Assembly: GCF_001465295.1 (NCBI RefSeq)
Contig: NZ_CP011034.1
Coordinates: forward strand, 810,001 to 842,000
Origin: Pseudoalteromonas translucida KMM 520
GTDB taxonomy: Bacteria; Pseudomonadota; Gammaproteobacteria; Enterobacterales; Alteromonadaceae
Reading direction: 5' to 3'
DNA: 32,000 nt
This document shows, piece after piece, positions 12,331 through 28,200 of this stretch (position 1 is its first letter; each line of letters opens with the position of its first letter). The position numbers and the translations under genes are program-made. The notes under the pieces were generated by a model, which saw only the letters and a list, made by a program, of their open reading frames with translations, did no database searches and was not told the DNA's origin.

Positions 12331-12463
12331 TGCTTCAGTAATTATTGGTATAAAATAAACTAGGTAATATATCCAAGCACAATTAATAAAGTTAAACGCT
12401 TACTTATAAGAATGTTTAACTGAAATGTAAGTGTACTTACACTACTTTCAGGGCCGCGAATGC

Positions 12464-13141
12464 ATGTTTAAATATAAAAAAAATAATACTTTAATATTGA
12501 GTTTGCTTATACTCTTGTTTAGTACTGCTTGTGCAACTGCGCCCAACAAAACGGTATTAGTAGAGCCAATAAACGACTCGCCTGAATATGTGTCTATTAC
12601 TGCATTAGAGCTGGCGCAACTAAAAGATGCCGCAATGCAATGGCAGCAAGCCCGCTCTGGGATTGAACGACTTTTAAAGCTAGAAAAAGATATTACCTAT
12701 TTGGTAAACCATATAGATATTATAAATAGCAAAGCAATTGCGCAGTCTAGTCAAAAAGCTCGCAATCATTATAATCGCCCCACGCGCAAACAACGCTACT
12801 CGAGCACTGCTCAGCAAGCAATTAAACCAGCTTATAGTACAAAACCAACGGTAAAATTAAATACTCCAAAGCAAGTTTTTGCATTACAAGTTGCGTCGCT
12901 CGATTCCGAAAAAGACTTAGTTAAAGCATGGCAAGAACTCAATGAGCAAGCCGCGCCGTTATTTAGAGATAAAATTCGCACCAATGTTGAAACAGCAAAT
13001 GTTAATAATAAAACCTACTATCGATTAAAGTTAGGCGTGTATCAAAACTTTAAAAATGCCCAAGCCGATTGCGACGTGTTTAAACTTTATAAACTCGACT
13101 GCATAGTAAGTAACTACACAGATAAACCGGTAAAGCTGTAG
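12464..13141 (+). CDS. Lipoprotein with SPOR-like C-terminal domain (paralog A)
   Basis: The ATG at 12464 gives MFKYKKNNTLILSLLILLFSTAC, a signal peptide with a lipobox (the track GTG at 12431 is less likely). The C-terminus FALQVASLDSEKDL...NNKTYYRLKLGVYQNFKNAQADCDVFKLYKLDCIV fits a SPOR-type beta-alpha-beta-beta repeat pattern. It is clearly paralogous to 18884-19546. Confidence 0.6.
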   Translation: MFKYKKNNTLILSLLILLFSTACATAPNKTVLVEPINDSPEYVSITALELAQLKDAAMQWQQARSGIERLLKLEKDITYLVNHIDIINSKAIAQSSQKARNHYNRPTRKQRYSSTAQQAIKPAYSTKPTVKLNTPKQVFALQVASLDSEKDLVKAWQELNEQAAPLFRDKIRTNVETANVNNKTYYRLKLGVYQNFKNAQADCDVFKLYKLDCIVSNYTDKPVKL

Positions 13142-13215: not shown

Positions 13216-13803
13216 TTGAACAGACTGTTTTTAATATGTATTTTAGTTATTTTAGTTGCAGGGTGTAGTAATCAAAATACTGACGCCACACAGTTAAATG
13301 ACATAGTACGCATGGAAGAAATAAAACCTTACCTAGAACAATGGGACGCTAATAAAGATAAAATAACGCGTTTAAGCGAAATTGAAAGTGAGCTATTAAT
13401 GTTAGTTCAAGCGCTATCCCTACAAGCAGATTTAGAGACAGTACCTGAAAATATGCGTACAGGTGTTAAATTAGTTGAACATGGTACAAGTGAACAGAAT
13501 ATACAAGAAACAGCCCAAACAACTTTAACTACCCCACAGCAATCTACTTATGCCGTGAATTTAGGTAGTTACTTAAAAAAAGATTTAGCAATACTTACTT
13601 CGCAAAGGCTTCAAAAAGCATACCCTTTAATTTTTAAAGCGTTTCAATATAAAGTAAACACTCTTTCAAAGCCCAACATAGTGTTGCATCAGTTAATCGC
13701 TGGGCCATTTAATAATAAGCAAGATGCCATCATTTTTTGTCGAATCTTATCTAAAATAGACCTAGCCTGTAAGTTATCTCCTTTTGCTGGAGAAAATGTT
13801 TAA
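13216..13803 (+). CDS. Lipoprotein with divergent SPOR-like C-terminal domain (paralog B)
   Basis: A TTG start is the only one that retains the signal peptide MNRLFLICILVILVAGC (lipobox LVAGC), and the SD is weak. The C-terminus is YAVNLGSYLKKDLA...LHQLIAGPFNNKQDAIIFCRILSKIDLACKL. It shares a helical QW...RL..IE..L motif with paralogs A and D. Confidence 0.5.
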   Translation: MNRLFLICILVILVAGCSNQNTDATQLNDIVRMEEIKPYLEQWDANKDKITRLSEIESELLMLVQALSLQADLETVPENMRTGVKLVEHGTSEQNIQETAQTTLTTPQQSTYAVNLGSYLKKDLAILTSQRLQKAYPLIFKAFQYKVNTLSKPNIVLHQLIAGPFNNKQDAIIFCRILSKIDLACKLSPFAGENV

Positions 13804-13946: not shown

Positions 13947-14543
13947 ATGAATATGAAAAAATTATTAACTAAAACTACACTGGCTGCATCTGTTGCTTTA
14001 CTTGCTTTTGGTGCTTCGGCAGAAACTGCGACATTTAACGCAGGTGTAACTGTTCAAAATGCATTTACTTTTCAAAGTACTGCAGATTTAGATTTTGGTA
14101 CTATTCGTGCTACAGCAGATACAGCTACAACCGATACAGCGACGCTTGTTCTTGCAGCCAACCCTGCAACATCATCAAAAACAGCTGCTTCAGGTGCGGG
14201 CGCAGAAATTGCAGTACTTACAGCAGGTACGCCAGCTTCTTTTTCAGTGTCTGGAGTTTCTCCTTTTGCAACACTAACAATTGATGCGACAGGTGTAACG
14301 GGTGCTATTTCTCCGGTAACAGCTCCTGCAGGTACTGCAGGCTTTACACTTAGTACTCCTACTTACTACGTATTAACAGGCGCAAACCCAAATAGTGCAG
14401 CAACAACAGCTATTCAAGTTGACTCTACAGGCGCTGCTACATTTAATATGGGTGCAACATTAACTACAGATGCAACAACCCCTTCAAGTGATTACATTGA
14501 CGGCGATTACAGTGGTACATTCACATTAATATTAGATTATTAA
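13947..14543 (+). CDS. Secreted fibre (pilin-like) major subunit, DUF4402 / spore-coat-U-like
   Basis: Signal peptide KKLLTKTTLAASVALLAFGASA|E. The start may be the ATG at 13953, which lies 6 nt after AAGGA. It has an N-proximal LDFGTI motif, very high Thr/Ala/Ser/Gly content, no Cys, and a C-terminal strand DGDYSGTFTLILDY ending in Tyr. That strand resembles archaic chaperone-usher subunits. The gene lies upstream of a PapD-like chaperone. Confidence 0.6.
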   Translation: MNMKKLLTKTTLAASVALLAFGASAETATFNAGVTVQNAFTFQSTADLDFGTIRATADTATTDTATLVLAANPATSSKTAASGAGAEIAVLTAGTPASFSVSGVSPFATLTIDATGVTGAISPVTAPAGTAGFTLSTPTYYVLTGANPNSAATTAIQVDSTGAATFNMGATLTTDATTPSSDYIDGDYSGTFTLILDY

Positions 14544-14551
14544 TAGTATTT

Positions 14552-14570
14552 GCCTGCCTTAATGGCAGGC
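14552..14570 (+). promoter_or_regulatory. Intercistronic GC-rich stem-loop after the major-subunit gene
   Basis: GCCTGCC / GGCAGGC 7-bp stem with loop TTAAT. Only a short T-run (TTT) follows. The 3' arm overlaps the only purine-rich SD-like sequence (AGG) before the GTG at 14576. Confidence 0.5.
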
Positions 14571-14575
14571 ACTTT

Positions 14576-15022
14576 GTGCTAAAACTTATTTTATTACTGA
14601 GTGCTTTTTTTTGCGTTCAGGCACTTGCTCAGGTGACCGTTCTTGAACCTCTAAACTTCGGTACGATTGTTGTCGTAAAAAATACACCTAGTAGCTCAAT
14701 CACTCTTTTACCAAGTGGCAGTAGTTCGACAACCAATATACATTTAATGCAAAGTGGACATCCTGCAGAATTGCTTTTTGAGGGATTCGGGGCACGAGTA
14801 CAATTAAACATAAGTGATACAGGTGTATATCCATCCCTTAGTAGAGTGAATGGTGGAAACGCTTTTATACTTAACAGTGTCATTTATGCTTCTTCTGTAA
14901 CAACAAACGCATATGGCATGGGGGTTTTAAAGGTTGGGGGGCAGTTAAGCACCAGTGGCGACGGGCAACCATATATAGACGATAACTACAGCACCACAAT
15001 TGAACTAACAATTTCGTATTAA
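14576..15022 (+). CDS. Secreted fibre minor subunit, DUF4402 / spore-coat-U-like
   Basis: GTG start and signal peptide MLKLILLLSAFFCVQALA|Q. It has the same N-proximal LNFGTI motif and C-terminal DDNYSTTIELTISY strand as the upstream subunit. Confidence 0.55.
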   Translation: MLKLILLLSAFFCVQALAQVTVLEPLNFGTIVVVKNTPSSSITLLPSGSSSTTNIHLMQSGHPAELLFEGFGARVQLNISDTGVYPSLSRVNGGNAFILNSVIYASSVTTNAYGMGVLKVGGQLSTSGDGQPYIDDNYSTTIELTISY

Positions 15023-15035
15023 GAGCAATTTCACA

Positions 15036-15866
15036 ATGAATTTATTTAAACTTTTTTTTATACTTGCGTGTGCCAGCCAGCTATTCATAAGCTTTAATAG
15101 CCAAGCCAATTTACTTATCTCCCCAACTCGTATTTCTTTTGATGAACGCCAACGCGTTGCCAAAGTGATCGTTATAAACAATGGCGATGAATATCAGACA
15201 TACCGTTTAGAATGGCAGGAAAAAACAGCAAAACCAGAAGGTGGATACATTACCCTAACTGATGGGCAGACACCTTCTTCATCATTGAGCAATATGGTAC
15301 GTATGAGCCCGTCACAGGTGCGCCTAGCTCCTGGTGAGCGACAAATAGTAAAGCTTGCACTTAGGAAACCTAGAGGCTTAGACGATAAAGAGTATCGTTC
15401 GCATTTATTATTTAAAGCCCTACCTAATGAAACTAAAAGTAATAAACAAGGAATGGGTATCACAATTAATATGATTTTGAGTTACTCCATACCAATTATA
15501 TTACGCCAAGGGGCTAAAATACCTGAAGTAGATATTGAATCTGTTGAAGTAATAAAAAATCAAAAAAATAGCGCATTACTTGTTTCGCTTGCGAAAACAG
15601 GAAATTATAGTGCTTTTGGTAAAGTTGAAGCTTTTTACCAAGCAAGTAATAGTAGTGAAGAAATTAAAGTGTCTATGATTAACGACTATAGTATTTACGC
15701 TGAAGTACCATTGGCTAGATTGACGTTAAGTCTATTTGAAAAAAATACAATTAAAGGGCCTGGTAAATTGCGTATCGTGTATTCCGGTTTAAAAGAATAT
15801 CAAGGTACCAAGTTTGCCGAGAAAATAGTTAATATTAATGTAGGATCATTAGGACTATTAAACTGA
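15036..15866 (+). CDS. PapD-like periplasmic pilus chaperone
   Basis: Signal peptide, then LLISPTRISFDERQRVAKVIVINNGDEYQTYRLEW. This fits the PapD_N pattern (i.PtRv.f ... v.v.N.g). MSPSQVRLAPGERQIVKL, EYRSHLLFKALP and SYSIPIILR also fit the Ig-like chaperone fold pattern. Confidence 0.62.
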   Translation: MNLFKLFFILACASQLFISFNSQANLLISPTRISFDERQRVAKVIVINNGDEYQTYRLEWQEKTAKPEGGYITLTDGQTPSSSLSNMVRMSPSQVRLAPGERQIVKLALRKPRGLDDKEYRSHLLFKALPNETKSNKQGMGITINMILSYSIPIILRQGAKIPEVDIESVEVIKNQKNSALLVSLAKTGNYSAFGKVEAFYQASNSSEEIKVSMINDYSIYAEVPLARLTLSLFEKNTIKGPGKLRIVYSGLKEYQGTKFAEKIVNINVGSLGLLN

Positions 15867-15874
15867 TTTTAAAA

Positions 15875-18865
15875 ATGCATTTCACATGGAGTGTAAGCTT
15901 AATTTTACTTGTATTAGGTTTTGGTGTGCAGGCATCTGTAAATAAAACAGATGCTGTGTATAACACTTTAGTTAATATTGAAAAAAAATGGCAAGCTTTA
16001 ACTTCTGAGCAGGTTAATACTGTTCACAGTAAAGAGCAAGCCACACTAATTAATAGTAGTGGTGATAAAAACGCAGGAATTCCTGTGGGAGAACTGTTGT
16101 TTTTTTCAGCGTACTTACGTCAATATTATTTAGGTGAATTAATTGCTATAAAAAGCGATAAAGGCGCTTGGCTTGAGCTTAATAGCTTGTTTGAGCAACT
16201 TAATTTTGCCATAGCAATTAATAACGAAAATTTAACTGCAAAAGGTTGGTATATTTCACAAAACAATCGTTTTGAGCTGGATTTAACTAATAAAACAGTC
16301 GTTATAAAAGGCGAGCTTTACCCACTATCTGAGCAAGATTACTACCTTGATGCTGGTGATATATTTATTGATTCAGCGCTTTTAAATAATTGGTTTGAGT
16401 TAAATTCAAAGCTAAACTTTAGTTCCTTGGAGCTTAGGCTTTCTCCTAAACAACAATTACCAATCGAGCAAAGACTACAGCGCGAAGAGAGAAAAATATC
16501 AAAAAATACTGATAGTTTAGAGCCCACATTACCTTGGAAAGCCAGTCCTTACCAAGCAGTATCTGCACCTGTAGCTGATTTCCAGCTTAGTTATTCTGCA
16601 ACTAAATCGAATAGTTCTTTAAATTACTCAATTTTAGGCTCGCAAGATCTCGCTTATTTAAAAAGTGAATACTACCTTGCTGGACAAAATGGCGATGATA
16701 TTAGGGATTCACGTTTATCTTTTAGCCGTGAAGATACAAGCGCAAGCTTATTAGGGCCATTAAATGCCACTAGTATAGAGTTTGGTGATGTACTTTCTAC
16801 GCAAATAGGAAGTAATTTTACTAGTAACTACGCACGTGGAGTTAAAGTAAATAACAAACCGTTGTATAAAAAGGTAAATAGTAATCAAATAAACTTAACC
16901 GGTGCAATACAGGCTGGTTGGGATGTAGAGCTATATCGGAATAAAATTTTAATTGATCAGCAGCTTAGTTTACCTGATGGGCGCTATCTTTTTGAAAATA
17001 TAGATTTACTGTTTGGGACTAATACGTTTGAGCTTATATTTTACGGGCCACAGGGACAAGTAGAGCGCAAAGTTGAAGAGTATTTAATTGACGGTAATAG
17101 CTTAAATGAGGGAGAAGGCTTTTATGAACTTTCATTAACCCAAGAGGGCGAGCAGCTCCTCACAACTCCCAATTACTTCAACGATCAACAAGGCTGGTTG
17201 TTAGCAGGTCGCTATGAGCAGGGGGTAACTGACTATTTTTCTGTTTATGCGGGGATATCGGCTCTAAAAAGTGATAACGCAGAGAGTCAAAATAATTATG
17301 CGTTTGGCTCTAATTTAAGTATTTTTAATCGTGTATTAATTAATTTAGATTATGAAAAAAGTAATGACAGTGAAAAAGAGCTTGAACTTGCAGCCAGAAC
17401 TGAGCTTGCCGGACAATCTGTGCGCTTTAGTATGCGAAAAGCATCATTATTAAATGCTAGCCAGCAGAGTAATTTATATAACGATATAGACGCTTATGAG
17501 TTATTTGTATCGGGTAATGTTATGCAAAATAATTATGGCCATTTAAGTTATCAAAACACGGCGTCACATATAAGTAGTGATACTCAACAAAGCATTCTTA
17601 GATTTGGAAATAGCTTAAACTACTATAATAGCGGCTATTCGTTTAATAATAATTTACAGTGGTCAGATAATGATACCTTTTTTGGTAGTAGCCGGTTGCA
17701 AAAACGTTTTGGACGATTGAGCACGCGTTTCGGTGTTAACTACGAAATTAAACCAGAAAGTGAAGTTACGAGTTACGAAACGGAGTTTAGCCGTAACCTA
17801 AGCTCTAATTTACAAGCAGAATTAAAATTAACACACCAGCTAGAAGATAACATTAAGTTTGTTGAGTTAGGATTAAATTGGCAAGCTCAGCTGTTTAGCT
17901 TAAATAGTAATTTTAATTACGATAGTGAGGATAATTGGCGTATCGGTTTATTTGGTCGCTTTAGCCTAGGGTATGACACTAAAAACAACAACTACTTTGT
18001 TAATAACCGCAGTTTAGTTCAGTCGGGCTCTTTAATGGTACATGTTTATCTTGATGAAAATAATAATGGTATTTATGACGATGGTGAGCAAAATTTAGAA
18101 GGGATCAAAGTTAAAGGGCTACAAAATTACCGAAGAGCGATAACTGATGAGCACGGTATCGCTTTATTATCGGGTATGCCAGCCAATTTAACCACTGATA
18201 TAGTGATTGAGCCCGGTAGCATTAACGAGCCTTTTTTAGTTGCCGCTAACGATGGTTTTTCAATAACACCGCGTGCGGGCTTTGTTGAATACATGGAAAT
18301 ACCGCTTAACAATAGTAGTGAAATAGAGGGCACGGTATATAAACAGCATGATGGTAAGCCCAGCGAAGTGCAACCATTCGCCACAATTAAGTTACTTGAC
18401 CAGCAGGGCAAACAAGTGGCGCAAACACAAGCTGCTTACGACGGTTATTATTTATTTACTGATTTACGCCCTGGTGAATATAAAGCCGTAATTGATGATG
18501 AGTTTAAAGAGCGTAAAGCACTTAAAGATACACAACAAATTATGGTGAACTTACCAGCGCAAGGTGAAGTAGTAATGGGCGTAGACTTTGAGCTTAAAGA
18601 AAAAGCCAAAAAGCCAGCTTATATTGCTAACGCGGGGCGTTTTTCATCGTTACCTATAATGAAAGCGTATTACCAGTTAATAAAACAGCACTTGCCTGCT
18701 GCGTCAAAGCGAGAAGCATTTTACATAAAGGATAAACAGCAAAAACGTTATATATTAGCTATAGCATACGCAGATTCAGAACAAGGTAAACTCGAGCAAG
18801 TATGTAATGAACTGCAAATTAAAGGCTTAAGCTGCGAAGTGCAAGCACAACTAATTAGCCATTAA
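15875..18865 (+). CDS. Usher-like outer-membrane protein with C-terminal beta-sandwich modules and SPOR-like tail
   Basis: 996 aa with signal peptide MHFTWSVSLILLVLGFGVQA. An usher-type motif is present: GWDVELYRNKILIDQQLSLPDGRYLFENIDLLFGTNTFELIFYGPQGQ (nt 16901-17085). A long region of alternating beta-barrel-like sequence follows. Next come an SdrD-B-like VHVYLDENNNGIYDDGEQNLEGIKV and a carboxypeptidase-regulatory-like IEGTVYK...DGYYLFTDLRPGEYKAVI (about 18035-18560). The protein ends with a SPOR-like YIANAGRFSS...RYILAIAYADSEQGKLEQVCNELQIKGLSCEV (about 18611-18862). The position after the chaperone fits an usher. Confidence 0.5.
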   Translation: MHFTWSVSLILLVLGFGVQASVNKTDAVYNTLVNIEKKWQALTSEQVNTVHSKEQATLINSSGDKNAGIPVGELLFFSAYLRQYYLGELIAIKSDKGAWLELNSLFEQLNFAIAINNENLTAKGWYISQNNRFELDLTNKTVVIKGELYPLSEQDYYLDAGDIFIDSALLNNWFELNSKLNFSSLELRLSPKQQLPIEQRLQREERKISKNTDSLEPTLPWKASPYQAVSAPVADFQLSYSATKSNSSLNYSILGSQDLAYLKSEYYLAGQNGDDIRDSRLSFSREDTSASLLGPLNATSIEFGDVLSTQIGSNFTSNYARGVKVNNKPLYKKVNSNQINLTGAIQAGWDVELYRNKILIDQQLSLPDGRYLFENIDLLFGTNTFELIFYGPQGQVERKVEEYLIDGNSLNEGEGFYELSLTQEGEQLLTTPNYFNDQQGWLLAGRYEQGVTDYFSVYAGISALKSDNAESQNNYAFGSNLSIFNRVLINLDYEKSNDSEKELELAARTELAGQSVRFSMRKASLLNASQQSNLYNDIDAYELFVSGNVMQNNYGHLSYQNTASHISSDTQQSILRFGNSLNYYNSGYSFNNNLQWSDNDTFFGSSRLQKRFGRLSTRFGVNYEIKPESEVTSYETEFSRNLSSNLQAELKLTHQLEDNIKFVELGLNWQAQLFSLNSNFNYDSEDNWRIGLFGRFSLGYDTKNNNYFVNNRSLVQSGSLMVHVYLDENNNGIYDDGEQNLEGIKVKGLQNYRRAITDEHGIALLSGMPANLTTDIVIEPGSINEPFLVAANDGFSITPRAGFVEYMEIPLNNSSEIEGTVYKQHDGKPSEVQPFATIKLLDQQGKQVAQTQAAYDGYYLFTDLRPGEYKAVIDDEFKERKALKDTQQIMVNLPAQGEVVMGVDFELKEKAKKPAYIANAGRFSSLPIMKAYYQLIKQHLPAASKREAFYIKDKQQKRYILAIAYADSEQGKLEQVCNELQIKGLSCEVQAQLISH

Positions 18866-18883: not shown

Positions 18884-19546
18884 ATGCAAAATGTTAATTT
18901 TTACAAACGATTTTTAATTATAATAGTATGTATAGGCACTGCTTTTATATCGGGTTGTAGTAGTACTGAGCAAAAAGTGGAAACGTTAGATAAAGTTACT
19001 ACTCAAACCGAGGTTACTATTTCAGCTGAAGAATTAGATCAATTAAAAGCCTCGTCACAGCAGTGGCAGCAAGCTAAAGCGGGCGTAGAGCGTCTATTAA
19101 TTATAGAGCAAGACCTAAAGTTATTAATAAGCCAATTGAATGCGGTGGCACAAAGAGAATCGGCAGTAAACAGTAGCAATGTAAGTCAACCAGTAATAAC
19201 AGCAGAGGCTGAAGCTAATAAAGCAACTGCAACAGATGCAGTTGCTCCAGTGGAACAAATAGAGGAATACACGCAACCTCTTTTTTCTTTACAAGTTGCA
19301 GCGGTAACTGAACATGCGCGACTAGTTCAAAGCTTTAATGAAATAAAAGCAAATGCAGCTGAGTTATTTCACGGGGAATTTATTGCAAATGTAGAAACGA
19401 TAAAAATTAACGGTGTTACTTATTATCGTTTAAAGCTAGGTGCATACCAATATCAAAAAAATGCGAACATAGATTGCAATAAGCTTAAGCTACAGCAAGT
19501 TAATTGTATTGTTAGTCATTACACAGATCAGCCACTAAAGTTATAA
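18884..19546 (+). CDS. Lipoprotein with SPOR-like C-terminal domain (paralog D)
   Basis: AAGG SD and lipobox FISGC. SAEELDQLKASSQQWQQAKAGVERLLIIEQDLKLL parallels TALELAQLKDAAMQWQQARSGIERLLKLEKDITYL of 12464-13141. The C-terminus LFSLQVAAV...NGVTYYRLKLGAYQYQKNANIDCNKLKLQQVNCIVSHYTDQPLKL is near-collinear with paralog A. Confidence 0.6.
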   Translation: MQNVNFYKRFLIIIVCIGTAFISGCSSTEQKVETLDKVTTQTEVTISAEELDQLKASSQQWQQAKAGVERLLIIEQDLKLLISQLNAVAQRESAVNSSNVSQPVITAEAEANKATATDAVAPVEQIEEYTQPLFSLQVAAVTEHARLVQSFNEIKANAAELFHGEFIANVETIKINGVTYYRLKLGAYQYQKNANIDCNKLKLQQVNCIVSHYTDQPLKL

Positions 19547-19608
19547 ATAGATAAAGGGGCGGCACAGTACTTGCTTTATCTTTTGTATGTTTTTTGAGGA
19601 TGGCAACT

Positions 19609-20202
19609 ATGCGCCTTTTATTACCGTTATTATTAGTAAACTTAGCAGCATGTAGCTTAACACCACAGCCTGAGCCAAGTGTAAGCACAACTGCGCGTAA
19701 AGCAGCCATGGCACCTTATACGGTTAACGACTACGTAAATAACTTAACTTATCAGCTTAGTCACTTTAAAGGACCTTTAAGCGGTAATTCTCGCATTGGG
19801 GTAAGCAGCTTTTATTACGCAAACGCGCTAGATTCAAAGCTTCCCAGCGGCCAAGCTGAAGGTTTAAGCCAACAAATTCAAGAAAGCCTGCTAACGCAAT
19901 TCACTCAATTGGGATATAACACCGTTGAGTACCGTTTAAGTAATAATATAAATTTAGCATCTAACGCCGATAGCGTGCTTAGCAGAGATATAACTCAACT
20001 GCGCGAACGTCAGAATATTGACTTAATTATTACCGGCACAGTTACACGCCAGCAACACGCTTATATTGTTAATGCCCGACTGGTTAATATTAACAATAAA
20101 CACGTTTTATCAGCTGGCAGTACCGAAATCCCGATTAATGTAATGTGGGGCAGTGAAAAAGTTCAGCAACGCGATAATAACTTATATCGCAGCGAATACT
20201 AA
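19609..20202 (+). CDS. FlgO-like lipoprotein 1
   Basis: The ATG at 19609 lies 8 nt after GAGGA and gives MRLLLPLLLVNLAAC (lipobox). The core is RIGVSSFYYAN...LSQQIQESLLTQFTQLGYNTVEYRL...SVLSRD...DLIITGTVTRQQHAYIVNARLVNINNKHVLSAGSTEIP. This fits my recollection of the FlgO family pattern, whose fold may resemble CsgG/LpoB. Confidence 0.5.
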   Translation: MRLLLPLLLVNLAACSLTPQPEPSVSTTARKAAMAPYTVNDYVNNLTYQLSHFKGPLSGNSRIGVSSFYYANALDSKLPSGQAEGLSQQIQESLLTQFTQLGYNTVEYRLSNNINLASNADSVLSRDITQLRERQNIDLIITGTVTRQQHAYIVNARLVNINNKHVLSAGSTEIPINVMWGSEKVQQRDNNLYRSEY

Positions 20203-20215
20203 TTAGGAGCACAAA

Positions 20216-20908
20216 ATGAAAAAGCTATTACTTACATTATGTTTGCCATTGGGCTTTGGGTGCTCACAAATGCTAACAGGCATGAACTCAGACACCACAC
20301 AAAAAAATAAAAACAACTCAGTACAATTGGCTAATGGCGAGCGCGCAGTGGCAGCTCCAATGACCGACAACCAGGTATATCAGTCGGGGTTAATGCAACA
20401 TACTAATTATTCAAAATCGAGCACGCCATCGCGTAAAAATATTAATCATTATGTGCGTGGCATAATGCAAAATATGGTAGAAAACCTACAATATGTGAAC
20501 GAAAAAACACCACTGGCAGTTTCAAGCTTTGTGTTTTTAGATGATGATTACAACGACGCAAGTTTGTTAGGAAATCAAATTTCCGAAAGTTTCATGCATG
20601 AACTACACAGCTTTGGCATACCAGTTATCGACTTTAAAACTACCGATTATATGCGCGTAACTCCAAGCGGCGATTTTGTATTTAGCCGCGACTACCTTGA
20701 GCTCAACCAAGATCAAAACTTTAACTATGTTTTAGCCGGCACTTTAGTAAGCCATCAAGGTGGTGTGCTTGTAAATGCACGTATTATTGGCTTAGCCAGT
20801 AAAGCCGTAGTAGGAACAGCACAAGGCTTTATTCCTCAGTCAGTGGTAGATGCACTTAATAGTAGTTACAGAACCGATGGCATTATGCTTAAACAAGTAG
20901 GTAAGTGA
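20216..20908 (+). CDS. FlgO-like lipoprotein 2
   Basis: AGGAG SD and lipobox LGFGC. The core is LAVSSFVFLDD...LGNQISESFMHELHSFGIPVIDFKT...GDFVFSRD...YVLAGTLVSHQGGVLVNARIIGLASKAVVGTAQGFIP. It is paralogous to the genes on both sides. Confidence 0.5.
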   Translation: MKKLLLTLCLPLGFGCSQMLTGMNSDTTQKNKNNSVQLANGERAVAAPMTDNQVYQSGLMQHTNYSKSSTPSRKNINHYVRGIMQNMVENLQYVNEKTPLAVSSFVFLDDDYNDASLLGNQISESFMHELHSFGIPVIDFKTTDYMRVTPSGDFVFSRDYLELNQDQNFNYVLAGTLVSHQGGVLVNARIIGLASKAVVGTAQGFIPQSVVDALNSSYRTDGIMLKQVGK

Positions 20909-20915
20909 GGTAGTT

Positions 20916-21563
20916 ATGCAGCATAATTTAAATTTCATTATTATTACTTTACTATTTTTAGTTGGTTGCTCATCAAGTCGAACAGAAGTTAACCCCTCGA
21001 CTAACGATAATATAAGTTATGATTTAAATGAAATGCTTAAAGTAGTGCAAACAGAAACGGTTCATACCGAGGTTGATAGCACTCAATTTACCCCCCTTAA
21101 ACACCATAAAACTTTGGTTAATTATGTAGAGCAAATGGCGCTTGATTTAGTCGACACTCTAGAGTCTGGCAGTGAGCTTGAGGAGAGCATAAATATAGCG
21201 GTAACAAGCATAGTCGATTTAGATGCCACCTTAAATAACAGCAACCAGCTGGGTAACCAAATATCAGAAACACTCATTCATCAACTACAAAAGTTTGGTT
21301 ATGGGGTGGTTGATTTTAAAACGAGTGATGCAATAAACGTAAATCGTCGCGGCGACTTTGTTTTTTCACGAGACATAAAAAATCTCAGCAAAAAGCATAT
21401 GGCAAGCCATGTACTTGGTGGTACGTTAATATACCGCGCTAATGGCGTTACAGTGAATACCCGAGTTATAAACGTAAATAATAAAAAAGTCGTTGCCAGT
21501 AGCCGAAAATTTATACCAAGATACGTTTTAAACAAAGAAGATATCTACTTATCAAGTAATTAA
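20916..21563 (+). CDS. FlgO-like lipoprotein 3
   Basis: GAGG SD and lipobox FLVGC. The core is IAVTSIVDLD...LGNQISETLIHQLQKFGYGVVDFKT...GDFVFSRD...HVLGGTLIYRANGVTVNTRVINVNNKKVVASSRKFIP. Confidence 0.5.
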   Translation: MQHNLNFIIITLLFLVGCSSSRTEVNPSTNDNISYDLNEMLKVVQTETVHTEVDSTQFTPLKHHKTLVNYVEQMALDLVDTLESGSELEESINIAVTSIVDLDATLNNSNQLGNQISETLIHQLQKFGYGVVDFKTSDAINVNRRGDFVFSRDIKNLSKKHMASHVLGGTLIYRANGVTVNTRVINVNNKKVVASSRKFIPRYVLNKEDIYLSSN

Positions 21564-22049: not shown

Positions 22050-22982
22050 CTAGCCATCATTTGTAATTGTTTCAATTAGTTCACTCAATACAGTATCGGC
22101 TTTGCTGGTTTCTACTTGGCAGGTGCCGGCATTTAAGTGGCCGCCGCCATTGTATTTAAGGCATAGTTCGCCGACGTTGGTGTTTGAGCTACGATTAGTG
22201 ATTGATTTACCAATGGCGTAAACCACATTTTGCTTTTTAAGTCCCCACATTTTATGAATTGAGATATTGCAGTTGGGGTACATGGCATAAATAACAAAGC
22301 GGTTGGTGGCGTATATTGTTTCTTCTTGCGTTAAATCAAGGATCACTAAGTTGTTGTGAACTTTGGCGCAGCGGGCTATTTGTTGCTTAGCTTGCTCGTT
22401 ATGCTCATTATATAAAGCAACACGTTCGGCTACGTCTTCCATTTGTAATATTTCATCAATGCCTTGGTCTTTACAGGCATCAATTAGTTTCATCATTAGT
22501 TGGTAGTTCGAAATTTTAAAGTCACGGAAGCGACCAAGTCCGGTACGTGCATCCATAATAAAGTTCATAAGTACCCAGTCGCTTGGGTTGAGTATTTCGT
22601 CTTTTGAAAATTGTGCGGCATCGCCTTTATCTACTGCGTCCATCATTTGGGCTGAAATAGTAGGGAATTTTTCTGCGCCGCCATAATAATCATAAACAAC
22701 ACGGGCTGCCGATGGTGCTTGTGGGTCAATAACATGATTTTTAATGTTGCTTGCATTACGCACTGTTTCACTAAGGTGGTGATCAAACGCTACATGGCAG
22801 CCTGCGACGTAGGGAAGGTTGGTGGTGATATCGTTGGCGGTGATAGCTATTTTACCATCTTGCATGTCTTTAGGATGTACAAATAAAATGTCATCAATTA
22901 GGTCTAAGTCTTTTAACAATACGGCGCATACTAGGCCGTCAAAATCGCTGCGGGTGACGAGTCTAAATTTATTATTGCTCAT
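22050..22982 (-). CDS. DHH-superfamily phosphoesterase (NrnB / phosphodiesterase-like)
   Basis: 310 aa. The N-terminus has LVTRSDFDGLVCAVLL (DxD motif) and VAFDHH (DHH motif), and the C-terminal region has GGGH. Confidence 0.72.
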   Translation of the reverse strand: MSNNKFRLVTRSDFDGLVCAVLLKDLDLIDDILFVHPKDMQDGKIAITANDITTNLPYVAGCHVAFDHHLSETVRNASNIKNHVIDPQAPSAARVVYDYYGGAEKFPTISAQMMDAVDKGDAAQFSKDEILNPSDWVLMNFIMDARTGLGRFRDFKISNYQLMMKLIDACKDQGIDEILQMEDVAERVALYNEHNEQAKQQIARCAKVHNNLVILDLTQEETIYATNRFVIYAMYPNCNISIHKMWGLKKQNVVYAIGKSITNRSSNTNVGELCLKYNGGGHLNAGTCQVETSKADTVLSELIETITNDG

Positions 22983-25487: not shown

Positions 25488-26396
25488 ATGAATATGAACT
25501 TAAAAGATTTAGAGTATGTAAAAGCCATAGCGCACTTTAAGCACTTTCGTAAAGCGGCCGATGCGTGCTTTGTAAGCCAGCCTACCTTAAGTGGCCAAGT
25601 AAAAAAACTCGAACAGGAGCTAGGTGTTACTTTATTTGACCGCTCTACTAAACAGGTAACGTTAACTGCCAAAGGCGAGCGTTTATTAACACAAATTAAT
25701 ATTATTTTAGAACAAACACAAATACTTAAAGAGCTTGCTGCTACGTCAAACGAGCCGCTACAGGGTAAGTTAACTATTGGTATTATTCCAACCATTGCGC
25801 CTTATTTACTGCCGGTATTACTCACTTCAATGAAAGAAGCGTTTATTAATAGTCGCTTTTCGTTTATTGAAATGCAAACCGCTACAATTTTAGAAGCGCT
25901 AGATAACGGCGAGCTCGACTTTGCTATTTTGGCCGATGTACCCGAGCTCAAAAAGTACCATAGGGTTAATTTATACAAAGAAGATTTTGTAGTGGCTGTA
26001 TCACACGATAATTCATTAGCTCAGCAAAAAAAAGTAGCGCTGCGCGACTTACAAGGATGCAGCCTATTAATGTTAAGTGATGGCCATTGCTTTAAAGATC
26101 AAGCCCAGCAGTTTTGTTTTTCGGCAGGAGTTAATGTGTCGAGCCAGTATCAGGGCAATAGTTTAGAAACATTACTGGCGCTGGTGGCTATGGATGACGG
26201 AGTTACATTTGTGCCTAAATTGGCATGTACTGAGCGAGTGGGGGTTAATTATTTAGCTATTTACCCTAATCAGCAGCGCAATATAGTATTTGCATCTAGA
26301 AAGCATTACCCGCATTTATCGGGGGTTGAGCAATTGGGTGAATGGTTGTCGGCTCACCCTAATTTAAAGGCTAAATTAACTAAAGTCTTGAATTAA
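25488..26396 (+). CDS. oxyR: LysR-family hydrogen-peroxide sensor OxyR
   Basis: LKDLEYVKAIAHFKHFRKAADACFVSQPTLSGQVKKLEQELGV forms the HTH. LLMLSDGHCFKDQAQQFCFSAG aligns with E. coli MLMLEDGHCLRDQAMGFCFEAG, which carries the redox cysteines C199 and C208. The start may be the ATG at 25494. Confidence 0.88.
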   Translation: MNMNLKDLEYVKAIAHFKHFRKAADACFVSQPTLSGQVKKLEQELGVTLFDRSTKQVTLTAKGERLLTQINIILEQTQILKELAATSNEPLQGKLTIGIIPTIAPYLLPVLLTSMKEAFINSRFSFIEMQTATILEALDNGELDFAILADVPELKKYHRVNLYKEDFVVAVSHDNSLAQQKKVALRDLQGCSLLMLSDGHCFKDQAQQFCFSAGVNVSSQYQGNSLETLLALVAMDDGVTFVPKLACTERVGVNYLAIYPNQQRNIVFASRKHYPHLSGVEQLGEWLSAHPNLKAKLTKVLN

Positions 26397-27586
26397 AGGT
26401 TTTGGCTAACTATTTCGACTATATCGTTAATTTGCACGCCCGGAAGTGGTGCATTATTAATGCTTACCGCAATGGCGCTTTGTTGATACAACTGCTCAAC
26501 ACGAATGCTATTAAGGGTAATCACTTTATGTGGCATAGTATTGCCTAAAGCGTCTGTTAGGTAGTTGTGGTGTGCAATGCTAAGTAGTTGGCCTTTTTTA
26601 AGGCCATGCGCTTTACCTAAGTTAATCACTATGTTGCCCTGATCAAGGTGCATAATTTTTCCTTGAGTAGGCAAGCAGGCCATAGCTGATTGTAAATCGT
26701 AACTTAGCGTTTGGTTTATATCGTTTATGCTTTGCCCATAGGGCGATTGCCAAAACATACTACTGTTAACATCAACAATTGCGGTTTTTTCAAATGGCCA
26801 AATAGCTTGATTTTGATAGCTATTTTGCCAAAGCTGCTCATAAGTTGTGCCATCAAAAAGGGTAAACTCTATTTGGTAACTACGTTGATAGCTTTCGTCT
26901 TGCCAAAAGGCATAGTCGCTATTGAGCTTGTCGCTAGTTGATAGATTGGTTATTTGGCTTAATAAAACGTACTGCGCGTTACTGCGCGAAGAAATATCTT
27001 CTAATTGCGCATTAGAGTAGTCGTGTTGCTGCGAAAAATACTTATCGACCTTTATTGCGTTGTTGTAATAAGCAATTGGTACTGCGCTCATTTTTGACTT
27101 TTGCAATGCGGTATAAATATTTTTGCTAACGGCTTTATCTATGTCAAATATTTGACCCATGCGGGCTTGTTCACGATGATTAAGCTGGCTTTGGGTAACG
27201 GCCACAAACTTTTTAAAACTACTTTGTGGGCATTGCTCTGTTTGTGCAAAAATATCTAAGCGCAGTGTAATAGCTAGCTGATTATTATGACGCTCTTCGC
27301 TCACAAGCTCTATTTTTTGAATTTCGCCATGGCTGCTTATTTTAAGCTGATCTTGCATTAGCACGCCGTCTACTAAGGTTTGTACCGAGCTTACCCGCGC
27401 ACCAGAGAACACTAACGCTTGTGTAATGGCATCTTTAATTGCTGCAGATTTAGCTGCGCCTACATCGCTACTTTTAACTTGTGCATGGCCGGTCGACTCA
27501 TACCACTGCGCTGCAGTAAAAGGCGAAAACGTTAATAAAGCAGTTGCGCTTAGCCCTGCAAATACCGATGATAAAAACGAATTCAT
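26393..27586 (-). CDS. flgT: Flagellar H-ring-associated periplasmic protein FlgT-like
   Basis: 397 aa with a signal peptide ending FTAAQ|WYESTGHAQV. Length, the N-terminal pattern (AQWYE.TG.A), and a position divergent from flgP and next to flgNMA all match Vibrio flgT as I remember it. The assignment rests largely on synteny. Confidence 0.6.
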   Translation of the reverse strand: MNSFLSSVFAGLSATALLTFSPFTAAQWYESTGHAQVKSSDVGAAKSAAIKDAITQALVFSGARVSSVQTLVDGVLMQDQLKISSHGEIQKIELVSEERHNNQLAITLRLDIFAQTEQCPQSSFKKFVAVTQSQLNHREQARMGQIFDIDKAVSKNIYTALQKSKMSAVPIAYYNNAIKVDKYFSQQHDYSNAQLEDISSRSNAQYVLLSQITNLSTSDKLNSDYAFWQDESYQRSYQIEFTLFDGTTYEQLWQNSYQNQAIWPFEKTAIVDVNSSMFWQSPYGQSINDINQTLSYDLQSAMACLPTQGKIMHLDQGNIVINLGKAHGLKKGQLLSIAHHNYLTDALGNTMPHKVITLNSIRVEQLYQQSAIAVSINNAPLPGVQINDIVEIVSQNL

Positions 27587-27741: not shown

Positions 27742-28200
27742 ATGCGAGTAATGCCATTACTTATCACGTTAGGATGCATAACTTTAAGCGGTTGTAGCAA
27801 TATGTTTGATAAGCACGTTGAATACAAATATGTAGAGCCAAACAACTACCCGGTATTAAAAGCCGTGGGTTATGCACCTATTAGCCTGCAGTCGGGTGTA
27901 AATAAGTCGCAAAAGCAGCTAATGGCTATTAAGGCTTCTAAGCTAGAAGCTTACCGAGAGCTTGCAGAGCAAGTGTATGGGCAACAAATTACCGCAGGTA
28001 CTACAGTTGCAGGTTCAATAGCACAAGACGATTACCTACAAAGCAAAGTGCAGGGCATTATTAAAGGCGCACAAGTTATAAAAGCCTACGCGGTAGACGA
28101 CACCTATATAACTGAGCTTGAACTAAACATGAAGCGCGTACACGACCTGTACATAGGCGAAATTAAACCCCGAGAAGTTAAAAAAGTAACTTATTATTAG
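27742..28200 (+). CDS. flgP: Flagellar lipoprotein FlgP (LPP20 family)
   Basis: 152 aa with lipobox TLSGC. LKAVGYAP......Q..LMAIKASKLEAYRELAEQVYG fits the LPP20/FlgP pattern. It is divergent from flgT, as in Vibrio. Confidence 0.7.
   Translation: MRVMPLLITLGCITLSGCSNMFDKHVEYKYVEPNNYPVLKAVGYAPISLQSGVNKSQKQLMAIKASKLEAYRELAEQVYGQQITAGTTVAGSIAQDDYLQSKVQGIIKGAQVIKAYAVDDTYITELELNMKRVHDLYIGEIKPREVKKVTYY

Follow-up and report, generated by a model that had tools for sequence, protein, structure and literature searches.

Chaperone-usher pili are among the best-understood bacterial adhesins, and their ushers are, to our knowledge, generally viewed as free-standing outer-membrane pores without a link to the cell wall. 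The gene considered here lies at positions 15875-18865, on the plus strand, of a 32,000-nucleotide (nt) stretch of the Pseudoalteromonas translucida KMM 520 genome (NZ_CP011034.1, positions 810,001 to 842,000 of the forward strand; this whole stretch is called the window, and nucleotide positions below are counted within it). It encodes a protein of 996 amino acids (aa) that an original prediction, made from the sequence without database searches, had described as an usher-like outer-membrane protein with two beta-sandwich modules and a SPOR-like C-terminus. We think it probable that this protein is an outer-membrane usher belonging to a divergent chaperone-usher fibre system, with a SPOR-fold tail that most likely couples the assembly platform to peptidoglycan. 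Together with its relatives it would represent a large clade that standard usher models have missed, one whose ushers normally bear a wall-binding domain and whose subunits come from a family of unknown function. Every structural statement made below refers to a predicted structure, none to an experimental one.

The closest described machines are the ushers FimD and PapC. With these the protein shares a predicted barrel of 24 strands, into which a plug of six strands is inserted between strands 6 and 7, as well as a folded, beta-rich domain where ushers have their periplasmic N-terminal domain (NTD) and two C-terminal beta-sandwiches (C-terminal domains 1 and 2, CTD1 and CTD2) in the same order, and its gene, like theirs, stands beside genes for a PapD-like chaperone and small secreted subunits. 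It differs from them in falling below all curated usher thresholds, in an NTD of unrelated sequence that is Cu_amine_oxidN1-like in relatives, in an SdrD-B-type DxNxNG loop in CTD1 and an SdrD_B/CarboxypepD_reg-like sandwich at the position of CTD2, in an added N-terminal helix with linker and an added C-terminal SPOR domain, and in subunits that belong to DUF4402 rather than to the Fimbrial family.

The archaic (sigma) systems, such as Csu of Acinetobacter and CupE of Pseudomonas, resemble the present one in being broad and non-classical and in using small beta-rich subunits (PMC9452303, PMC10104325, PMC4654587). The operon plan of major subunit, one or more minor subunits, chaperone and usher is shared as well, as is a likely role in biofilm formation or surface attachment in environmental bacteria. 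We take the archaic clade to be defined by ushers that the Pfam Usher model recognises together with subunits of the SCPU family, and by that description the operon studied here, which has neither a PF00577 match in its usher nor an SCPU match, stands apart from it. In a search of the open-access literature we met no archaic usher described as ending in SPOR or in any other domain that binds the wall.

For the tail, the nearest described counterparts are the SPOR domains of FtsN, DamX, DedD, RlpA and CwlC, with which it shares the predicted beta-alpha-beta-beta-alpha-beta fold and, in the case of FtsN, DamX, DedD and RlpA, a C-terminal position in the periplasm. Those proteins have an inner-membrane anchor or are lipoproteins, whereas here the domain would hang from an outer-membrane beta-barrel machine. 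In the secretin PilQ, an AMIN module directs the machine to poles or to future sites of division. PilQ and the inverse autotransporters such as YeeJ, in which the module is LysM (PMC5595812), thus also combine an outer-membrane pore with a periplasmic peptidoglycan-binding module; their barrel families and export mechanisms are unrelated to the usher's, and the module that would bind the wall here is a SPOR domain at the C-terminus. The system described here is chaperone-usher-like and, as far as the open-access literature shows, new; it lies outside the curated usher family and has another subunit family, another NTD, a predicted wall-binding domain and dedicated SPOR and FlgO lipoproteins.

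A probable, remote usher outside the curated usher family

The open reading frame (ORF) starts with ATG and opens with a plausible Sec signal peptide (MHFTWSVSLILLVLGFGVQA, with the cut before SV). The NCBI model of the protein (979 aa, P0001) begins 17 codons downstream, which leaves out window 15875-15925 and with it the signal peptide, so the 996-aa reading is the more plausible one for an outer-membrane protein. It is not a chance ORF, given 235 word-filtered homologs, the cluster representatives counted below and an identical (100%) database entry from Pseudoalteromonas translucida. That entry is named 'carboxypeptidase-like regulatory domain-containing protein', and other family members go under 'hypothetical', 'MSCRAMM family', 'carboxypeptidase regulatory-like', 'sporulation protein' or 'SPOR domain-containing', never under 'usher'. 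The protein is ~120-170 aa longer than the six ushers of E. coli K-12 (826-878 aa), which agrees with the excess of about 150 aa originally noted and is accounted for by the SPOR tail (~85 aa) and the N-terminal helix and linker (~50 aa). The predicted parts of the gene are these:

15875..18865, plus strand: whole gene of the predicted divergent usher with SPOR tail (sequence, AlphaFold model, Foldseek, HHalign)
15947..16024, plus strand: N-terminal helix of the mature protein, aa 25-50, motif L..I.KK[W/Y]Q (DSSP, low pLDDT, the predicted local distance difference test score; the motif recurs in homologs)
16082..16444, plus strand: beta-rich periplasmic NTD, aa 70-190 (model pLDDT ~90)
16571..16852, plus strand: barrel strands 1-6, aa 233-326 (DSSP of the model)
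16886..17089, plus strand: plug domain of six strands, aa 338-405, motif GWDVELYRN...FELIFYGPQGQ (DSSP; aligns to the FimD plug)
17117..17977, plus strand: barrel strands 7-24, aa 415-701 (eighteen strands by DSSP; HHalign to the FimD barrel; Foldseek)
18017..18313, plus strand: CTD1-equivalent beta-sandwich with a DxNxNGxxDxxE loop, aa 715-813 (HHalign to E. coli usher CTD1)
18317..18601, plus strand: beta-sandwich at the CTD2 position, SdrD_B/CarboxypepD_reg-like, aa 815-909 (Pfam SdrD_B E 2e-10)
18608..18862, plus strand: C-terminal SPOR-fold domain with the Cys pair C977/C987, aa 912-996 (AlphaFold, Foldseek, Pfam on homologs, HHalign)

An AlphaFold2 model built from an alignment of 60 homologs (25-87% identity) has a mean pLDDT of 85.3. 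By DSSP its barrel consists of 24 strands, 6 followed by 18 long antiparallel ones (aa 233-701), with the six-strand plug module inserted between strand 6 (aa 319-326) and strand 7 (aa 415-424). When this model was compared with the PDB by Foldseek, ranks 1-18 were all FimD or PapC ushers. The match to FimD 3rfz_B (E 2.3e-27) extends over 918 columns, that to PapC 7lhg_C has E 8.5e-24, and those to the isolated translocation domains of PapC and FimD (2vqi, 3ohn and 3fip) have E of ~1e-15 to 2e-13, with target-normalised template modelling (TM) scores of 0.53-0.57. The next non-usher barrel is LptD at ~1e-6, some 20 orders of magnitude weaker than the ushers. The usher-type barrel and plug of the original prediction thus both appear in the model, and the motif that it singled out as usher-like within 16901-17085 (GWDVELYRN...FYGPQGQ, aa 348-395, nt 16916-17059) is present and is the plug itself. 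This plug is the most conserved part of the family, with G343, W349, F373, G381, N383 and G391-G394 invariant.

When six E. coli K-12 ushers (FimD, SfmD, YehB, HtrE, ElfC and YraJ) are combined into one profile, the profile of the family aligns with it by HHalign at a probability of 96.9% (E 1.4e-10, 436 columns), and the regions that pair are plug with plug, strands 7-24 with strands 7-24 and CTD1 with CTD1. The plug falls on FimD precursor residues 300-378, GRYxFxDV standing opposite the usher GxFxIxDL and FELIFYGPQGQ opposite LxVTIxEADGS. The significance is reached only against the six-usher profile, the family profile scoring a probability of 1.5% against FimD alone, and the plug taken by itself was negative against the E. 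coli ushers. On its predicted structure and on these alignments, the 996-aa protein does belong to the usher superfamily, but so distantly that it lies beyond the reach of PF00577.

A set of searches that returned no usher weighs against this assignment. The 996-aa sequence has no match to PF00577 (Usher), PapC_N or PapC_C, in the case of PF00577 not even at E<=1, and none in NCBIfam; phmmer with the protein against the PDB gave nothing usher-like, and a PDB search with the usher family profile gave SdrD B repeats only. When the domains were compared with E. coli ushers one by one by HHalign, the NTD, strands 1-6 and CTD2 had no detectable similarity, and the region equivalent to the NTD in distant homologs matches Pfam Cu_amine_oxidN1, not PapC_N. 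In favour of the assignment stands the sole, sub-threshold trace of PF00577, in the plug region of a distant homolog from Desulfobacter (P0100; E 0.0065, 15.8 bits vs a cut-off of 27.1).

Between the N-terminal helix and the NTD lies a variable low-complexity linker that runs up to GIPxGE(E/L)L (helix and linker together: window 15947-16081, aa 25-69). The L..I.KK(W/Y)Q motif of the helix is only loosely conserved, and classical ushers have no such element.

Two C-terminal beta-sandwiches in usher positions

The strings quoted in the original prediction are all found in the ORF (VHVYLDENNNGIYDDGEQNLEGIKV at aa 722-746, IEGTVYK at aa 817-823 and DGYYLFTDLRPGEYKAVI at aa 856-873). Its assignment of the two sandwiches to SdrD-B and carboxypeptidase-regulatory-like modules is borne out by Pfam for SdrD_B, which lies above its cut-off; the CarboxypepD_reg match stays below its own. 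It had also counted the sandwiches as part of what sets the protein apart from ushers, and here our analysis leads elsewhere, for they sit at the positions of usher CTD1 and CTD2, and the first is homologous to CTD1 of FimD. CTD1 is the sole domain of the protein that is significant by itself, with a local HHalign match to E. coli usher CTD1 (probability 83.5%, E 8e-6); the second sandwich is, in the model, equivalent to usher CTD2 by position only. With entry names such as 'MSCRAMM family' in mind, we considered whether the sandwiches could be adhesin-like insertions, and rejected this in view of their periplasmic CTD1/CTD2 positions and the homology of the first to usher CTD1. The sandwiches hold the places of usher CTD1 and CTD2 and are not add-ons; the real additions are the SPOR tail and the N-terminal helix and linker.

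The DxNxNGxxDxxE loop of CTD1 (window 18053-18088, aa 727-738) is of SdrD-B type; D727 is invariant, N729, N731 and D735 are kept in >=90% of the family, and a profile search of the PDB pairs the loop with SdrD B repeats. The same motif occurs in Ca2+-binding SdrD B repeats, which suggests by analogy that the loop is a candidate Ca2+ site and that CTD1 may be a calcium-stabilised periplasmic domain, in bacteria that are mostly marine.

A SPOR-fold tail and what it may bind

Modelled alone, the tail has a pLDDT of 90.1 and the order beta-alpha-beta-beta-alpha-beta (strand 8-19, helix 22-35 with a further helix at 37-41, strands 45-49 and 54-62, helix 66-78 and strand 84-91, numbered as in the tail model). 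Foldseek places the SPOR domain of CwlC (1x60) first (probability 1.0, TM 0.67), DedD (6ztg) third (0.97) and RlpA (6i09) eleventh (0.94), so that a SPOR fold for the C-terminal segment, as first proposed, is what the model gives. Sequence comparison adds to this at the level of the family. Pfam SPOR (PF05036) matches 13 of 28 homologous tails, the best with E 7.3e-15, and the tail profile aligns by HHalign with the E. coli SPOR domains of FtsN, DamX, DedD and RlpA (probability 93.2%, E 2.9e-7), a value that rises to 97.1% when two Pfam-positive neighbouring lipoproteins are added. The consensus of the 28 tails reads GYxxxxGxFSSLxxLKxYW ... FY ... YxL...F ... A...C..L......C.V. In distant homologs the C-terminal SPOR domain is above threshold outright (YRV/YRL, Pfam E down to 5e-21), sometimes in two copies and sometimes behind linkers of 300-400 aa. 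These predictions and alignments support the tail as both a SPOR fold and a SPOR homolog.

The tail ends, as the original prediction had it, in C-x9-C (C977...C987). This Cys pair is invariant in all 28 aligned tails, and a tail with the pair is present in 105 of 118 full-length homologs; canonical SPOR tails in 7 more bring those with a tail to ~112 of 118. The tail is predicted to be periplasmic, so the pair could be oxidised, and its invariance fits an oxidising compartment. Its position, in helix 2 and strand 4, differs from that of the FtsN pair in strands 1 and 4, where the FtsN SPOR domain reportedly has a stabilising disulfide (Duncan et al. 2013).

The original prediction knew of no described usher with such a fusion. 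We, too, found no paper in the open-access literature in which an usher is connected with SPOR or with another domain that binds peptidoglycan, but the fusion is not peculiar to this gene. Across 85 loci, in which all stop-to-stop ORFs were scored with hidden Markov models (HMMs) from alignments made in this analysis, the usher carries a SPOR tail in 77. A SPOR-tailed usher is the rule in a large and widespread family, not a one-off.

Whether such a tail would itself hold glycan is less clear-cut. FtsN Q251, S254, W283 and R285, reportedly the conserved glycan-contact residues on the sheet (Duncan et al. 2013), align to N919, R922, K957 and Y959 of the usher tail; in the family alignment the columns of N919, R922 and K957 are variable, and that of Y959 is a conserved aromatic. 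The Q is kept in 4/4 E. coli SPOR domains and the R in 3/4 (DamX is the one without it), whereas the tail here and those of most Alteromonadales homologs have neither the Q nor the R, which makes direct binding of denuded glycan uncertain. The Foldseek E-values of the tail also count against it, being weak (best 6e-3), with generic ferredoxin-like folds among the SPOR matches. Neither Pfam SPOR, searched with the protein's own sequence, nor a PDB sequence-profile search with the tail, which gave noise only (mainly SH2 domains and antibodies), found a SPOR domain. The usher tail may bind peptidoglycan, with real uncertainty.

Three lipoprotein genes of the same operon bear on this question:

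12431..13141, plus strand: SPOR lipoprotein 1, with canonical LQVA and YYRL and two paired Cys at its C-terminus (Pfam SPOR, above cut-off at E 7.3e-9)
13216..13803, plus strand: SPOR-like lipoprotein 2, lipobox VAGC, no Pfam match (matched by the HMM from usher tails alone)
18884..19546, plus strand: SPOR lipoprotein 3, lipobox ISGC, with canonical LQVA and YYRL (Pfam SPOR E 7.2e-6, above cut-off)

The first aligns with the usher-tail profile at an HHalign probability of 84%, the third starts 19 nt past the usher stop codon, and both of these flanking Pfam-positive lipoproteins keep the Q and the R. With a degenerate tail of the Alteromonadales type on the usher and canonical SPOR lipoproteins encoded beside it, docking of these lipoproteins is the main rival to glycan binding. 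If the usher assignment is right and the tail is a degenerate SPOR domain reused for protein contacts, it could dock the canonical SPOR or the FlgO lipoproteins, or act within the molecule as a regulator of the chaperone-subunit sites on CTD2 and the NTD. The failure of Pfam to find SPOR in the tail's own sequence fits this, as does the replacement of Q and R by N919 and Y959 next to lipoproteins that keep LQVA and YYRL. So do a surface motif of the family's own (F-S-S-L..LK.YW) and the invariant Cys pair, both absent from canonical SPOR domains, and the separate SPOR-protein genes in 70 of the 85 loci, to which wall binding could have been delegated. SPOR domains are, however, poorly conserved in sequence yet bind septal peptidoglycan, and the SPOR tails of distant homologs are canonical and in many cases sit on long flexible linkers, much as a tether to the wall would. 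Moreover, in a homolog of 1330 aa (L011, P0114; contig JAUUZL010000161.1 of a metagenome-assembled genome, MAG) there is no SPOR tail and an AMIN domain is found near the N-terminus (aa 151-230). AMIN is a septal-peptidoglycan-targeting module, so this is an apparent swap of one such module for another and speaks for wall targeting as the selected function. On balance we regard a tail given over to protein contacts as possible and rather unlikely, and we keep to a tail that couples the usher to the wall.

In all three lipoproteins, moreover, the N-terminal region is helical and contains a W-Q motif (QWQQA, EQWDANK) reminiscent of KKWQAL in the usher helix. Judged from sequence alone, a helix-helix contact between the lipoproteins and the N-terminal helix of the usher is possible.

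The putative subunits, the chaperone and the conserved cassette

The usher gene stands in a tight string of genes on one strand, with gaps of 8-144 nt. Besides the SPOR lipoproteins the string contains the following:

13947..14543, plus strand: long DUF4402 subunit, ~198 aa (Pfam DUF4402 E 2.5e-6, above cut-off)
14551..14571, plus strand: GC-rich stem-loop of 8 pairs, 6 of them G-C, with a weak T-run (terminator-like scan), directly 3' of the long DUF4402 gene
14576..15022, plus strand: short DUF4402 subunit, 148 aa, without extension (Pfam DUF4402 E 9.9e-5, just under cut-off)
15036..15866, plus strand: PapD-like periplasmic chaperone (Pfam PapD_N E 1.1e-7, above cut-off)
19594-20202, 20216-20908 and 20916-21563, plus strand: three tandem FlgO-family lipoproteins (Pfam FlgO E 3e-34 to 9e-44)

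Behind its signal peptide the long DUF4402 subunit has an N-terminal extension of ~15 aa (ETATFNAGVTVQNA) with alternating residues. The extension is present on the long subunit and absent from the short one in all five loci compared. In a chaperone-usher system one would expect a donor-strand extension on the polymerising subunit and none at the tip, and on this pattern the long protein would be the polymerising major subunit, its extension a candidate donor strand, and the short protein the tip or initiating subunit. For the chaperone, PapD_N matches 5/5 orthologs, and the chaperone profile aligns by HHalign with six E. coli fimbrial chaperones (probability 88%, E 3e-6), with PTR on the invariant TR.

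The cassette is conserved well beyond this genome. Among the 85 loci a chaperone is present in 81, at least one DUF4402 gene in 79 and at least two in 71. Chaperone and DUF4402 stand together beside the usher in 78, spread over Gamma- and Alphaproteobacteria, Desulfobacterales, Bdellovibrionales, Zixibacteria and Nitrospinaceae, and in the 7 exceptions the usher lies near a contig end or on a short contig.

If the DUF4402 proteins were not pilins, the plugged barrel could move some other cargo, as an LptD-like transporter of polysaccharide or lipid would, or serve as an anchor for surface proteins. The subunits leave some room for this. PDB profile searches with the DUF4402 subunits and the chaperone retrieved no pilus proteins, solved pilins included, and at relaxed Pfam thresholds the subunits gave no SCPU match (even at E<=5) and no Fimbrial signal. 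The open-access literature we searched holds no paper on DUF4402 (PF14352) and no fibre shown to consist of such proteins; these findings, too, count against a fibre system. An NTD that is not recognisably PapC_N and the presence of LptD and Occ barrels among the weaker Foldseek matches would also suit another cargo. Against it stand the lead of ~20 orders of magnitude that ushers have over LptD in that comparison, a plug placed exactly between strands 6 and 7, the detectable homology of CTD1, the PapD-like neighbour in 81 of 85 loci, and a pair of subunits, long with extension and short without, that follows the expected chaperone-usher logic. We therefore consider another cargo very unlikely and continue with DUF4402 proteins as the subunits of a fibre.

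The stem-loop at 14551-14571 resembles the attenuators behind the major pilin genes of classical fimbrial operons. By this analogy it may act as an attenuator and so adjust how much subunit is made relative to the assembly machinery.

Distribution

Among 1.84 billion cluster representatives (50% identity), a profile search returned 3,437 proteins at E<=1e-30, a count whose lower part may include proteins matching the beta-sandwich domains alone; the top 150 are all near full length and score >750 bits. When one genome per species was scanned, at least 580 species genomes were found to encode a relative. These relatives occur in Pseudoalteromonas, Paraglaciecola, Glaciecola, Alteromonas, Marinomonas, Psychromonas, Vibrio, Shewanella, Cellvibrionaceae and Rheinheimera, and further afield in Alphaproteobacteria, Desulfobacterales, Bdellovibrionales, Zixibacteria and Nitrospinaceae.

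In some loci, among them those of a Nitrospinaceae MAG (L090) and of Alteromonas facilis (L038), the chaperone and usher are preceded by four or five DUF4402 genes in tandem. Such arrays suggest subunit diversification or antigenic variation.

A model for a wall-coupled assembly platform

If the parts work together as their predicted structures and gene order suggest, the DUF4402 subunits would be exported by Sec and then captured by the PapD-like chaperone, which would deliver them to the periplasmic domains of the usher, where polymerisation would take place. The donor strand is probably supplied by the ~15-aa extension of the long subunit, and the growing fibre would be threaded through the 24-strand barrel under the gating of the plug domain. 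Both termini of the usher are expected in the periplasm, since the number of strands is even. The SPOR tail, lying below CTD2, would then couple the assembly platform to the peptidoglycan layer, either by binding glycan strands itself or by docking the canonical SPOR lipoproteins encoded on both sides of it in the operon. In either case the outcome would be a mechanical anchor for the pore, its placement where denuded glycan is plentiful (at the septum or new pole, for instance), or both. That ushers of this family repeatedly carry SPOR (or AMIN), and that some relatives have long linkers, speaks for coupling to the sacculus as the selected function.

A broader proposal can be built on this, which we put forward tentatively and consider unlikely to hold in all its parts. 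The family could be an unrecognised and broad class in which the usher is hard-wired to the sacculus by SPOR (by AMIN in one homolog), the SPOR and FlgO lipoproteins form a wall-anchored basal structure, and the machine is placed at division sites and gives rise to polar DUF4402 fibres. SPOR and AMIN recognise septal peptidoglycan, so the machine might already be in place where the cell divides and pass from there to the new poles. If the basal-structure reading were true, this would in effect be a chaperone-usher pilus with a basal body, and marine bacteria would bear polar DUF4402 fibres.

If the system is what we propose, DUF4402 would gain a function, and surveys that depend on PF00577 would undercount chaperone-usher systems, especially in marine and environmental bacteria. 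It would also be a naturally occurring example of an outer-membrane machine with a SPOR domain, and it would raise the question of why a pilus assembly pore should be anchored to the sacculus at all. Candidate answers are that the anchor bears load, that it places the pore at septa or poles, and that it coordinates the pore with the growth of the envelope.

FlgO-family lipoproteins and the genomic surroundings

Upstream of the operon the genes are housekeeping ones (mazG, pyrG, eno, mutH, ptsP, lgt, thyA and a galU-like gene), and a polar flagellar cluster (flgT, flgP-like, flgN, flgA, cheV, cheR) starts ~5 kb downstream. With three FlgO-family genes in the operon, and a flagellar cluster close by that has no flgO of its own beside the flgP-like gene, the whole operon, usher-like protein included, might be thought an accessory of the polar flagellum, associated with its H-ring or sheath, rather than an independent adhesive fibre system. 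In Paraglaciecola, Thalassomonas, Marinomonas and Desulfobacter, however, the cassette lies among unrelated housekeeping genes. At least two FlgO genes adjoin the cassette in only 34 of the 85 loci (Paraglaciecola and 33 others), where they travel with it in several arrangements and orientations, whereas chaperone and DUF4402 are nearly universal. We consider a flagellar accessory locus highly improbable and rejected it on the ground that the cassette is away from flagellar genes elsewhere; an independent fibre system remains our reading.

In the flagellar cluster itself, flgT (26396-27586, minus strand) is divergent from the LPP20/FlgP-like gene (27742-28200), beside which there is no flgO. 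From gene content alone, either one of the three FlgO paralogs may double as the flagellar FlgO, or the FlgO-like lipoproteins may have a second, fimbria-associated role. At its 3' end the operon is met by a convergent ORF of 310 aa (22050-22982, minus strand) that has no Pfam match.

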